Assembly: GCF_056746865.1 (NCBI RefSeq)
Contig: NZ_CM163382.1
Direction: 5' to 3' (one strand)
DNA length: 64,000 nucleotides
Shown here: piece after piece, positions 53,369-59,639 of the stretch
Numbering within the stretch: the stretch's first letter is position 1
Layout: the number at the start of each line of letters is the position of its first letter
Program-made: the position numbers and the translations under genes
The notes under the pieces: model-generated
What the model saw: the letters and a program-made list of their open reading frames with translations, nothing else
Database searches by the model: none
What the model was told of the DNA's origin: nothing

Positions 53369-57433
<4,065 letters not shown>

Positions 57434-57446
57434 ACTCCTTTCTGAT

Positions 57447-57478
57447 GCCCGGTAAGCATGTTGTTACCGGGCATTTTT
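57447..57478 (+). terminator. Rho-independent terminator after glpC
   Basis: GCCCGGTAA-GCATGTTG-TTACCGGGC stem-loop followed by ATTTTTG. Confidence 0.85.
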
Positions 57479-57625
57479 GCGTACACGATTCCGTGCCCAA
57501 TGTATGCGTTGCAACGCAGTGAAAATTCCTCTGAAAACGTCTCGCAAAGGCTGAAACTGGCAGATGTCAAAGGCCTGGGATAACCGTAATGTCGCGTCAT
57601 CATAAATATCAGGTGACGGACAACC

Positions 57626-58585
57626 ATGACCGAATCAACAACCTCCTCCCCGCATGATGCGGTGTTTAAAACCTTTATGTTCACACCCGAAACCGCTCGG
57701 GATTTTCTGGAAATACATCTACCAGAGCCGCTGCGCAAGCTTTGCAACCTGCAAACTTTACGCCTGGAACCCACCAGCTTTATTGAAAAAAGTTTACGCG
57801 CTTACTACTCGGATGTTTTGTGGTCTGTGGAAACCAGCGACGGTGAAGGCTATATCTACTGCGTGATTGAACATCAAAGCTCTGCAGAAAAGAATATGGC
57901 TTTTCGGCTAATGCGCTATGCCACTGCCGCCATGCAGCGTCACCTGGATAAAGGCTATGACAGAGTTCCGCTGGTGGTGCCATTGCTGTTTTATCATGGC
58001 GAAACCTCGCCCTACCCGTACTCACTCAACTGGCTGGATGAGTTTGACGATCCGCAACTTGCCCGGCAGTTGTACACCGAAGCTTTTCCGTTGGTGGATA
58101 TCACCATCGTACCTGACGATGAGATCATGCAACATCGGCGTATAGCTCTGCTGGAACTGATTCAAAAGCATATTCGCGACCGCGATTTAATCGGTATGGT
58201 CGACAGGATCACCACGCTTTTGGTTAGAGGCTTCACTAATGACAGCCAGCTACAAACGCTGTTTAATTATCTGCTGCAATGCGGCGATACCTCCCGTTTC
58301 ACCCGCTTTATTCAGGAGATTGCCGAACGTTCACCACTACAAAAGGAGAGATTAATGACTATTGCTGAACGGCTGCGGCAGGAAGGACATCAAATTGGCT
58401 GGCAGGAAGGTAAAATTGAAGGTTGGCAGGAGGGGAAATTGGAGGGGTTGCAGAAAGGCAAAGTAGAAGGTATGCATGAACAAGCCATTAAAATTGCCTT
58501 GCGCATGCTGGAACAGGGCTTTGAACGTGAGATTGTGCTGGCGACAACCCAACTCACTGATGCTGATATTCCGAACGGTCATTAA
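57626..58585 (+). CDS. rpnE: RpnE (YfaD), Rpn/YhgA-like recombination-promoting nuclease, PD-(D/E)xK transposase_31 family (319 aa)
   Basis: Translation [28 protein letters not shown]...YCVIEHQSS...; C-terminal repeat region [15 protein letters not shown]. Confidence 0.85.
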
Positions 58586-58597
58586 AAGGAGAGATTA

Positions 58598-58795
58598 ATG
58601 ACTATTGCTGAACGGCTACGGCAGGAAGGACATCAAATTGGCTGGCAGGAGGGTAAATTAGAAGGTTTGCAGGAAGGCATGCATGAACAAGCCATTAAAA
58701 TTGCTTTGCGCATGCTGGAACAGGGCATTGATCGTGACCTGGTGCTCGCGGCCACCCAGCTAAGCGAAGCCGATCTGGCAGCGAATAACCACTAA
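58598..58795 (+). CDS. ypaA: YpaA, small protein (65 aa) that is a tandem duplicate of the RpnE C-terminal module
   Basis: Translation [43 protein letters not shown]... nearly identical to the last ~77 aa of RpnE; own AAGGAGAG Shine-Dalgarno. Confidence 0.8.
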   Translation: MTIAERLRQEGHQIGWQEGKLEGLQEGMHEQAIKIALRMLEQGIDRDLVLAATQLSEADLAANNH

Positions 58796-58835
58796 TTAAC
58801 ACAGGCCCACAGCCGATCCCCATGGGCCTTTGATA

Positions 58836-59639
58836 TCAATAACTACCTTTTATGCGTGGCCCATTTTTGCCTGATTTAAACATCGCCAGTCGTTGATCCA
58901 GGGCATCGCTGTAGAGCATCGTGTCAACGCCAACAGCGACAAAGTTCGCTCCCCACGCCAGGCATTGCTGCGCCATATCAGGAGCCACAGCCAGAAAACC
59001 AGCCGCTTTACCCGCAGCACGGATCCGCCGAATGCTGGTTTCAATAATTCGCTGCACTTCCGGGTGCCCGGCGTTATCCGGGTAGCCCAACGAGGCAGAA
59101 AGATCCGCAGGTCCAATAAACACGCCGTCAATCCCTTCGACGTCGAGGATTTCGTCCAGGTTATCCAGTGCTGTTTTACTTTCCACCTGCACCAACAGAC
59201 AAAGCGAATCGTTGACTTGCGCCATGTAATTCTCAATGCGTCCCCAGCGCGCAGCCCGTGCCACACTGGCCCCGACACCACGCTCACCGTAGGGAGGATA
59301 GCGCGTGGCAGACACCACCTGACGTGCCTGATCGGCAGTATCGACCATCGGGATCAGTAGAGTTTGCGCGCCAATATCCAGGACTTGTTTAATCAGCGAC
59401 TTACTGCCTTCCACCGGACGGATCACGGGTTGGCTGGCATAGGGCGCTACCGCCTGTAGCTGGTGATAAAGATCCTGAATGGTGTTTGGCGCGTGCTCCC
59501 CGTCAATCAGCAACCAGTCATAACCGGAGGTGGCGGCAATTTCTGCCATATAAGAAGTAGTCGAGCTTAACCACAGACCAATTTGCACTTCGCCCTTGCG
59601 TAAACGTTCTTTAAAGGGATTGGTTAATAATGCGTTCAT
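58836..59639 (-). CDS. rhmA: 2-keto-3-deoxy-L-rhamnonate aldolase (267 aa)
   Basis: Translation [49 protein letters not shown]... (HpcH/HpaI aldolase family). Confidence 0.9.

Follow-up and report, generated by a model that had tools for sequence, protein, structure and literature searches.

The 3' end of the gene rpnE is repeated directly behind its stop codon in the stretch of DNA analysed here (the window; 64,000 nucleotides of contig NZ_CM163382.1, RefSeq assembly GCF_056746865.1), where it forms the stand-alone small gene ypaA. Such an arrangement raises the question of whether the second copy serves as a spare antitoxin for RpnE and of how the two copies came to lie side by side. The repeat is very probably the published Escherichia coli rpnE-ypaA locus in the allele of a non-K-12 strain, encoding RpnE_L, the in-frame RpnE_S and a second module copy, YpaA (RpnE_Ss), with YpaA as a non-cognate protein and a mosaic history behind the whole; the locus is 100% identical to that of strain 118UI. 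The duplication of the module itself is already known from published work. The internal start of rpnE was mapped by Meydan et al. (2019), and pairs of an RpnL toxin and an RpnS intragenic antitoxin were described by Zhong et al. (2023, PNAS; PMC10400941), who gave ypaA the name "rpnE_Ss" and described it as a second RpnE_S copy with expression in K-12. The first-pass annotation had described this work correctly, and as first written its finding of a repeat duplicates the published one, in which ypaA is also called a second RpnE_S copy, and adds nothing by itself. What the present analysis adds is that the repeat number of the second copy never equals that of the first in the loci read. In K-12, the rpnE (yfaD)-ypaA pair lies in the same glpC-yfaU interval and shares with the locus of the window the internal Shine-Dalgarno (SD) sequence and ATG, the junction and the small gene that follows; the K-12 allele differs in having 0 tetrads in the rpnE tail (299 aa) and 1 in YpaA (61 aa), compared to 5 (319 aa) and 2 (65 aa) in the window.

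Direct-repeat search and MAFFT alignment place the upstream copy of the SD-to-stop module, which forms the 3' end of rpnE, at 58341..58585 and the downstream copy at 58584..58795, both on the plus strand, the start of the latter overlapping the rpnE stop codon (TAA, 58583-58585). In the repeat search, 58341-58434 and 58584-58677 share 94% identity and 58466-58567 and 58673-58774 share 84%, whereas MAFFT aligns the two copies with a single 36-column gap and homology from AAAAGGAGAG through the stop codons. An identical 17-mer, AAAAGGAGAGATTAATG, opens both copies and constitutes their shared translation signal. The tandem repeat of the module is thus real, and its earlier coordinates were off by about 2 nt only, the second copy starting at 58584 and not, as first given for 58586-58795, at 58586. 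The in-frame indel noted between the copies was confirmed as well and measures 36 bp, but its units are not heptad-like: it corresponds to three 4-aa units in a tract of 12-bp units and, together with the 24-bp period detected by Tandem Repeats Finder at 58400-58471, identifies the units as tetrads (or octads). A chance match is excluded, since the same structure is present in 3133 of 5426 complete E. coli genomes. Antisense ORFs that mirror the repeat, such as one of 76 aa at 58352-58582 of the minus strand, were taken as by-products of the periodic sequence. An Rfam E-value scan of 57000-59200 gave no match, so nothing points to a structured RNA on either strand of the repeat.

The upstream gene, rpnE (yfaD; 57626..58585, plus strand; annotated as rpnE in RefSeq), is an ORF of 319 aa in this strain and represents the full-length RpnE_L. 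The protein matches Pfam Transposase_31 (PF04754) over residues 8-209 (E=6e-88) and NCBIfam NF007418 with 707 bits (cut-off 583), and it keeps, at the same positions, all six residues listed as important in RpnA (PMC5350276), namely D11, D63, E82, Q84, R94 and D165 (PDDEI motif). Both the N-terminal domain and the key residues are those of the Rpn / YhgA-like PD-(D/E)XK nucleases (PF04754, COG5464), and by homology rpnE would encode the PD-(D/E)XK nuclease RpnE_L. Its tail carries a tract of 5 tetrad units (20 residues; 58412..58471, plus strand; Tandem Repeats Finder and unit count) and ends in a 3' half (58525..58585, plus strand) that is divergent when compared with ypaA and with single-copy tails.

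Inside rpnE, the SD sequence AAGGAGAG (58343..58350, plus strand, read from the sequence) precedes an in-frame ATG at 58355, and the complete signal AAGGAGAG-ATTA-ATG occupies 58343-58357; the spacer, previously counted as 5 nt, has 4 nt. This internal SD is invariant across the E. coli loci read, bar one G-to-A variant, and in 68 of 74 Rpn homologues a conserved in-frame ATG has an SD core at positions -16 to -4, versus 5% of control positions. The ORF that opens at this ATG, rpnE_S (58355..58585, plus strand, 76 aa; NCBIfam and Pfam HTH_Rpn_C (PF27070) matches), is by homology a putative intragenic antitoxin, having, as RpnS proteins do, an in-frame internal start with its own ribosome-binding site before the C-terminal domain. 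Initiation at 58355 behind this SD would yield a 76-aa RpnE_S with exactly the sequence of the three-helix domain at the C-terminus of RpnE_L. In K-12, both RpnE_S and YpaA were detected by Ribo-RET/Onc112 profiling and SPA-tag immunoblots (PMC10400941; bioRxiv 10.1101/520783). The internal start and the 76-aa isoform predicted in the first-pass annotation are supported by these K-12 data and by the conservation in 68/74 homologues.

The characterised pairs RpnA_L/RpnA_S, RpnB, RpnC and the plasmid-borne RpnP2 have in common with rpnE the N-terminal PD-(D/E)XK domain and the conserved in-frame internal start. A further likeness is the three-helix C-terminal domain with a variable number of 4-aa repeats in helix 1 (RpnA_S: PDB 7TH0). 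Where pairs have been characterised, S attaches to the C-terminal domain of L through the long first helix and blocks the nuclease; S blocks L for RpnA, RpnB and RpnP2, and the complex is L2S2 (PMC10400941). RpnE differs from RpnA, RpnB, RpnC and RpnP2, for which toxicity and neutralisation by the respective S protein have been demonstrated, in that RpnE of K-12 showed no activity when assayed in 2017 for toxicity, SOS induction and recombination (PMC5350276). These are the only published activity assays, and in them the internal start was intact and the chromosomal ypaA present (PMC5350276). No experiment was found in the literature that shows RpnE_L to be toxic or to be inhibited by RpnE_S or YpaA, and given the inactivity in the 2017 assays the toxin role first proposed for RpnE was overstated.

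The downstream copy contains ypaA (rpnE_Ss; 58598..58795, plus strand), an ORF for a stand-alone RpnS-type protein of 65 aa that is assigned by NCBIfam, PDB and fold matches. Its SD, again AAGGAGAG (58586..58593, plus strand, read from the sequence), stands directly after the rpnE TAA, and its tetrad tract counts 2 units, KLEG LQEG (58655..58678, plus strand). The C-terminal part of YpaA matches NCBIfam NF007418 (E=5e-36), phmmer retrieves PDB 7th0 (RpnA-S) with a sequence E=5e-4, and a precomputed PF27070 (HTH_Rpn_C) match is on record. An AlphaFold2 model (pLDDT 77.7) has helices at residues 3-41, 46-53 and 57-61, and Foldseek returns 7th0 as its top match (probability 1.0, TM 0.73 normalised to the target). 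Sequence match and predicted model agree on the three-helix RpnS fold, the first helix being long, as it is in RpnA_S. Across the paralogues, YpaA clusters with the tails of rpnE rather than with those of other rpn genes. A stand-alone ORF right behind an rpn gene, and homologous to the tail of that gene, ypaA is of the RpnSs type. Matches to designed pentatricopeptide (PPR) proteins were dismissed as an artefact, each stretch contributing about 5 bits and the total accruing only over the repeats; matches to FliH and Yae1_N, located on the low-complexity QEGK tract, are artefacts too.

The repeat starts just 14 nt before the ATG of ypaA, which leaves the gene without a promoter of its own. Since ypaA also begins 12 nt past the rpnE stop, it most likely shares a transcript with rpnE and rpnE_S. 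This transcript would end at a GC-rich hairpin (58803..58829, no strand assigned; terminator scan and sequence) between the convergent genes ypaA and yfaU/rhmA, which is likely to act as their shared terminator. A simple consensus promoter scan of 57430-58900 found no sigma-70-like site anywhere in this region, and an internal rpnE promoter reported from dRNA-seq in K-12 was neither confirmed nor placed by the scan. RefSeq (PGAP) mostly calls ypaA a pseudogene fragment, a label that hides an expressed small protein.

Is YpaA then a spare antitoxin, as the first-pass annotation proposed? A spare cognate antitoxin would bind the C-terminal domain of RpnE_L as RpnE_S does, enlarge the antitoxin pool and buffer the cell. 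The two proteins agree in every one of their first 19 residues and over most of helix 1, the fold matches, and the same SD directly after rpnE makes co-expression probable. YpaA protein has been detected in K-12 (PMC10400941), where RpnE is the sole paralogue with an extra S gene and also the sole one that is non-toxic on over-expression (PMC5350276). We nevertheless consider this role unlikely. Helices 2-3 of YpaA carry 10 substitutions and an indel relative to RpnE_S, about 42% of complete E. coli genomes do without ypaA, and helix 1 of YpaA is here three tetrads shorter than helix 1 of RpnE_L and RpnE_S. As in other RpnS proteins, the number of 4-aa repeats in helix 1 varies among strains: the rpnE tail holds 0-8 tetrad units, and ypaA 0-6 in the loci read, with an 8-unit stand-alone variant in the protein database. 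The two numbers were unequal in 68 of 68 two-copy loci read, in 12 combinations (5 versus 2 here, 0 versus 1 in K-12), a set in which many extra loci were picked via certain variants of YpaA and which includes some contigs from short reads or metagenomes, in which the assembly of repeats can go wrong; they were likewise unequal in 22/22 evenly sampled complete genomes. A search for equal numbers via YpaA variants with 5 units, as many as the window's rpnE has, led to neighbouring rpnE genes with 0, 2 or 6 units or to a disrupted rpnE. The absence of equal numbers is not distinguishable from a random pairing of the 12 combinations (P=0.19), and no avoidance of equal repeat numbers is therefore claimed.

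The weight of these numbers comes from RpnC, for which one extra repeat abolished inhibition and a mismatch failed in both directions (PMC10400941), a rule that was generalised in a commentary (PMC10400984). By the RpnC rule, a cognate antitoxin has the tetrad number of the resident RpnE_L, and YpaA does not (5 versus 2 in the window). The analogy makes the spare-antitoxin role doubtful for RpnE, although RpnE may tolerate mismatches, as the rule was shown for RpnC and for a one-unit change. With a helix 1 that is shorter here and lengths that differ in every sampled genome, YpaA is presumably not interchangeable with RpnE_S. By the same analogy, YpaA is more likely to be a non-cognate paralogue that would mainly pair with itself. 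If pairing requires equal repeat numbers, YpaA would be unable to neutralise the adjacent RpnE in any genome sampled. The unequal numbers put the label of a "second antitoxin copy" in doubt and sharpen the question of what stand-alone RpnSs proteins do. A parallel drawn from the literature by Zhong et al. (PMC10400941) concerns the TAEL repeats of HsdS in EcoR124I and EcoR124II, where the number of 4-aa repeats in a helix also sets the specificity of interaction or spacing; there, the repeats set the DNA-target spacing of a restriction enzyme and not toxin-antitoxin pairing.

The second part of the question concerns the origin of the two copies. The first-pass annotation ascribed ypaA to a tandem duplication, but a simple recent event of this kind disagrees with the comparison of tails within the genus. 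The ypaA tail shows 2-3 nt differences in 114 to the single-copy rpnE tails of two Escherichia species and 12-14 in 114 to those of E. albertii and E. whittamii, whereas the tail fused to rpnE shows 23-26 nt differences to single-copy Escherichia tails. Judged from these sequences, it is ypaA and not the fused tail that appears to correspond to the single-copy, presumably ancestral, rpnE tail of E. coli and other Escherichia. Fused tail and ypaA are separated by 20 fixed differences, all in the last ~61 nt, and dS between the copies reaches 0.78-1.65 in the 3' half. The 3' halves of the two copies thus seem to have diverged anciently, the fused one being probably much older or foreign. Its donor could not be traced, no closer tail being found in 80 related loci from 100,044 species genomes or on plasmids, where the top 'plasmid' matches were mislabelled chromosomes. 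A recent import of the fused tail into E. coli alone was rejected, because E. marmotae and two other Escherichia species also have two copies.

If the original tail of rpnE was displaced in this way, ypaA might be a functionless leftover of the rearrangement that is still translated because the SD was retained. This fits the match of ypaA to single-copy rpnE tails, its lack of a promoter, its absence from about 42% of complete genomes, from which recombination would have removed it, the pseudogene label given by PGAP in most cases and the frameshift at the 3' end of the E. marmotae copy. Decay is, however, not what the gene displays elsewhere: none of the 68 E. coli two-copy loci read shows damage to the ORF, SD or ATG of ypaA, dN/dS against outgroup tails is low (0/0.08, 0/0.12, 0.06/0.38 and 0.07/0.27), and its tract changes in-frame only, like those of functional RpnS proteins. 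Moreover, downstream S copies have arisen independently by rpnC and in Rahnella, which suggests that the arrangement is repeatedly favoured. On balance, a functionless remnant appears improbable, and a retained, non-cognate YpaA remains our preferred reading.

The 5' halves of the copies have a different history. Their 71 nt show zero fixed differences and have polymorphic sites in common, which indicates gene conversion, and it is by conversion that the 5' halves (SD, start of helix 1 and repeats) would have been kept similar. Depending on the strain, an identical 5-unit block lies either in rpnE or in ypaA, and hybrid tails exist in L040 and in P0018/P0041; unequal recombination would delete ypaA or yield such hybrids. 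Between species, identity jumps from 82-93% to 95-100% across 58057-58600, and the resulting ~0.55-kb block with the fused tail is nearly identical among Escherichia species. This suggests a spread by recombination, with about 550 nt and three genomes from outside E. coli as its basis, and the fused-tail block appears to have travelled between Escherichia species. The resulting mosaic of converted 5' halves, old 3' divergence and a mobile block would offer a compact natural case of how a defence-type module diversifies by recombination.

Exchange between the copies might itself be the function. The downstream module would then be a donor or acceptor for the rpnE tail, and one event would either give RpnE_L and RpnE_S together a new repeat number, and with it a new specificity, or exchange the whole tail, similar to silent-cassette or hsdS-type variation. 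The 5' 71 nt, with polymorphisms common to both copies, the 5-unit block found upstream or downstream, the hybrid tails and the 12 repeat-number combinations can all be read in this way, and according to a speculation of Zhong et al. (PMC10400941), RpnL itself may help to bring such events about. Tandem repeats exchange, however, without any selected function, the locus has no invertible or site-specific machinery, and repeats also vary in single-copy rpn genes, which have no cassette (PMC10400941). Haplotypes are also lineage-stable, each YpaA variant occurring with the same 1-2 rpnE alleles in up to 10 unrelated assemblies. A recombination cassette is hence a tentative proposal to which we assign a low probability. 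Speculative, and in our judgement very unlikely, is the wider scheme in which ypaA archives the ancestral specificity module of a two-cassette system. A block with a foreign or ancient tail would have been inserted ahead of it and spread between Escherichia species, and conversion or unequal crossing-over would reset repeats and tail of RpnE_L and RpnE_S and so switch toxin-antitoxin specificity, while the mismatched YpaA may act elsewhere, for example on an incoming rpnE allele or a phage factor.

[quoted passage not shown] 2023). Like ypaA, this rpnC_Ss is a stand-alone copy of the gene's own tail located immediately downstream; it differs in the start context, its ORF opening with MDITARRETRQTLAQW..., and in being derived from the tail of another paralogue. 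A downstream copy of the rpnC_Ss type is also present in L094, with 87% identity.

Positions 57500-58900 of the window, which comes from E. coli, are 100% identical to strain 118UI and match 5420 of 5426 complete E. coli genomes. After glpC, which ends at 57433, lies rpnE (yfaD; 57626-58585, plus strand, 319 aa), followed on the same strand by a 65-aa ORF (58598-58795; ypaA in K-12), a hairpin with a 10-bp stem (58803-58829) and the convergent yfaU (rhmA). That the rpnE 3' end is tandemly repeated as ypaA, as proposed in the first-pass annotation, was borne out by repeat search, MAFFT and Tandem Repeats Finder. The repeat search of the window paired 58341-58434 with 58584-58677 at 94% identity and 58466-58567 with 58673-58774 at 84%; in the MAFFT alignment the two copies differ by one 36-bp gap inside a tract of 24-bp period (58400-58471) detected by Tandem Repeats Finder. 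Both copies open with the identical 17-mer AAAAGGAGAGATTAATG, and the in-frame internal ATG at 58355 yields a 76-aa product (RpnE_S), so the proposed sharing of the translation signal holds as well. The second copy had been placed at 58586-58795; it begins at 58584, overlapping the rpnE stop codon, and the ypaA ATG lies 12 nt past this stop. The repeated segment starts 14 nt 5' of the ATG and includes the Shine-Dalgarno (SD) sequence, not the upstream promoter region. Its variable units, initially described as heptad-like, are 4-aa tetrads, five in the rpnE tail and two (KLEG LQEG) in ypaA.

The tandem arrangement as originally stated is already known, since it was published by Meydan et al. 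and Zhong et al. (2023). Ribo-RET peaks were found at in-frame internal starts of all five rpn genes and the resemblance of the rpnE internal product to YpaA was pointed out (Meydan et al., bioRxiv 10.1101/520783). The RpnS proteins are made from internal starts, and all five as well as YpaA were seen by SPA tag; ypaA was explicitly named "rpnE_Ss", a second RpnE_S copy derived from rpnE, and deletion or fusion was noted as able to remove such Ss copies (Zhong et al., 2023, PMC10400941). The same study reported that the toxic nucleases RpnA_L, RpnB_L and RpnP2_L are blocked by RpnA_S, RpnB_S and RpnP2_S, respectively, that RpnA_L assembles with RpnA_S into an L2S2 complex, that RpnA_S (PDB 7TH0) is a three-helix dimer and that plasmid-borne RpnP2 protects against T-even phages (PMC10400941). 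Over-expressed K-12 RpnE was the only paralogue without toxicity, SOS induction or recombination stimulation (PMC5350276), and a short rpnE_S transcript has been reported for K-12. A literature search found no paper on YpaA function later than Zhong et al. (2023). In K-12 (strain J53; locus L001, 2056-2424) the internal RpnE product has 56 aa and YpaA 61 aa; a tetrad, a single further residue and 10 substitutions set them apart, leaving ~82% identity, whereas 98% identity was stated in the 2019 preprint (bioRxiv 10.1101/520783).

Family membership of the two proteins is supported by several comparisons. RpnE matches Pfam Transposase_31 (E=6e-88), scores above the cut-off of the NCBIfam RpnE model and keeps all six positions important in RpnA (D11, D63, E82, Q84, R94, D165). 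YpaA matches the RpnA_S chain of 7th0 in sequence (E=5e-4), and its AlphaFold2 model (pLDDT 77.7), with predicted helices at 3-41, 46-53 and 57-61, has the same entry as top PDB fold match (probability 1.0). Of 74 Rpn homologues (Enterobacterales plus a small number of other bacteria), 68 have a 4-mer SD core between -16 and -4 of the conserved in-frame ATG (M-T-I-A...), compared with 5% at control in-frame positions of the same genes.

Of 5426 complete genomes, 3133 have the two-copy arrangement (rpnE plus ypaA), scored by the sequence of fused tail (the tail now attached to rpnE) and junction. Repeat numbers were read from 19 complete genomes spaced evenly along the similarity ranking for 57500-58900, from 8 further genomes taken likewise from a junction-specific search, and from ~60 loci reached via particular YpaA variants, the last being non-random and including some short-read or metagenome contigs. 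Tetrad numbers of rpnE tail and ypaA are unequal in 22/22 two-copy complete genomes (window included) and in 68/68 two-copy loci overall. Twelve combinations (rpnE/ypaA) occur: 0/1 (K-12), 5/2 (window), 5/0, 5/1, 3/1, 6/2, 8/6, 8/4, 1/4, 0/5, 2/5 and 6/5. Mismatch is thus the rule; avoidance of equal numbers is not claimed, because random pairing of the 12 combinations gives no match with P=0.19. The number of helix 1 repeats is known to vary between strains, and one extra repeat in RpnC_S abolishes its counteraction of RpnC_L, the reverse also being true (PMC10400941). Under this result and the commentary on it, a mismatched YpaA would not pair with the adjacent RpnE_L. Mainly for this reason the "spare antitoxin copy" of the first-pass annotation is not accepted, and a true spare-antitoxin role of YpaA appears doubtful; bar this step and the heptad wording, the toxin/antitoxin-like interpretation was largely right and is found in the literature. 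ypaA is probably transcribed together with rpnE and the short rpnE_S transcript; RpnE_S, which matches the C-terminal domain of RpnE_L exactly, would be the cognate partner, and YpaA, with a helix 1 shorter by three tetrads and diverged helices 2-3, would mainly pair with itself. The repeat mismatch and the mosaic history of the copies are modest additions to published knowledge, and the role of YpaA is now directly testable. Nor is length variation confined to the tetrad tract: a 76-aa E. coli YpaA variant (P0108) has an 11-aa stretch duplicated in helix 1/2.

Over the post-repeat 111-114 nt, ypaA lies 2-3 nt from the single-copy rpnE tails of two other Escherichia species (L038, L039) and 12-14 nt from those of E. 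albertii and E. whittamii, and the fused tail lies 23-26 nt from all these tails and from ypaA. The 20 fixed differences between the copies in 60 two-copy loci all fall in the last ~61 nt. Between copies, overall dS is 0.78, rising to 1.65 from codon 15 onward (dN 0.16); for ypaA versus outgroup tails it is 0.08-0.38. A closer relative of the fused tail was found neither among related loci from species genomes nor in a plasmid search. From these short sequence stretches and few non-E. coli genomes we infer that ypaA may be the counterpart of the original rpnE tail and the 3' half of the fused tail old or foreign. That ypaA is a functionless leftover, still translated, is improbable, as the maintained ORF and SD and the low dN/dS speak against pure decay.

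The opposite is seen in the 5' 71 nt (SD to first repeat), where fixed differences are absent and the two copies are polymorphic at the same sites, which is the signature of gene conversion. An identical five-unit block is found in the rpnE tail of some strains and in ypaA of others. It is conceivable, if unlikely, that ypaA is a recombination cassette for specificity switching. Single-copy E. coli (O157:H7 and others) carry rpnE with a ypaA-type tail, and hybrid tails, seen in one genome of E. coli (L040) and in some proteins of the database, show loss through crossing-over of the two copies. E. marmotae and two more Escherichia species share this two-copy structure and junction, and their fused tails are 0-2 nt in 98 from E. 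coli. The ypaA tails are 8-13 nt from E. coli in the two cryptic-clade genomes, the E. marmotae copy being frameshifted and not comparable. Flanking DNA of these loci is only 82-93% identical to E. coli, and identity rises to 95-100% across 58057-58600 (window versus L168, L172, L174). This jump suggests that homologous recombination has transferred a ~0.55-kb block from one Escherichia species to another; the block takes in the last third of rpnE together with fused tail and junction.

In most genomes PGAP annotates ypaA as a pseudogene ('incomplete; missing N-terminus') starting directly after the rpnE stop (RefSeq E. coli loci L003-L012, L017 and L160-L167, equivalent to window 58586-58795), and only a handful of records have it as a hypothetical protein of 61 aa (WP_000150333.1). 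Despite the pseudogene label, all loci read contain an intact ORF, complete with an SD of its own and an ATG. The usual pseudogene annotation, together with the absence of ypaA from ~42% of genomes, argues against an essential role. In E. marmotae (L168-L171, 1501-1728) a 1-nt insertion replaces the last two helices by ...DRDLAARSHPAKRSRSGSE (75 aa); as 50 or more contigs carry this form, it is fixed in a lineage and not a sequencing error.

In E. coli UTME-10 (L019, 2259-3584) IS2 interrupts rpnE after ~codon 211, and the tail and ypaA region resume past it. The downstream rhamnonate operon is itself polymorphic, since yfaU is annotated as a truncated pseudogene in some strains and a MoCF_biosynth-domain gene follows ypaA in others, replacing yfaU-yfaV (loci L014 and L015, single-copy; L025, L149, L172). 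The rpnE of Escherichia whittamii (L036, 2477-3439) has a premature stop at codon 185 without an indel and retains an intact 77-aa internal S ORF with SD, which looks like a toxin-dead, antitoxin-kept state. In Rahnella bruchi (L074, 2501-3900) a stand-alone S-type ORF of 82 aa lies ~210 nt downstream of a 312-aa rpn gene; its post-repeat part is 56% identical to the tail of that gene and its repeat number differs, an independent case of the rpnE-ypaA arrangement in a distant genus. Finally, E. coli SCPM-O-B-8794 (L094, 2429-3701) has, downstream of an rpnC-like gene, a second copy of that gene's tail, a 75-aa ORF at 87% identity; this is the rpnC_Ss arrangement mentioned by Zhong et al.
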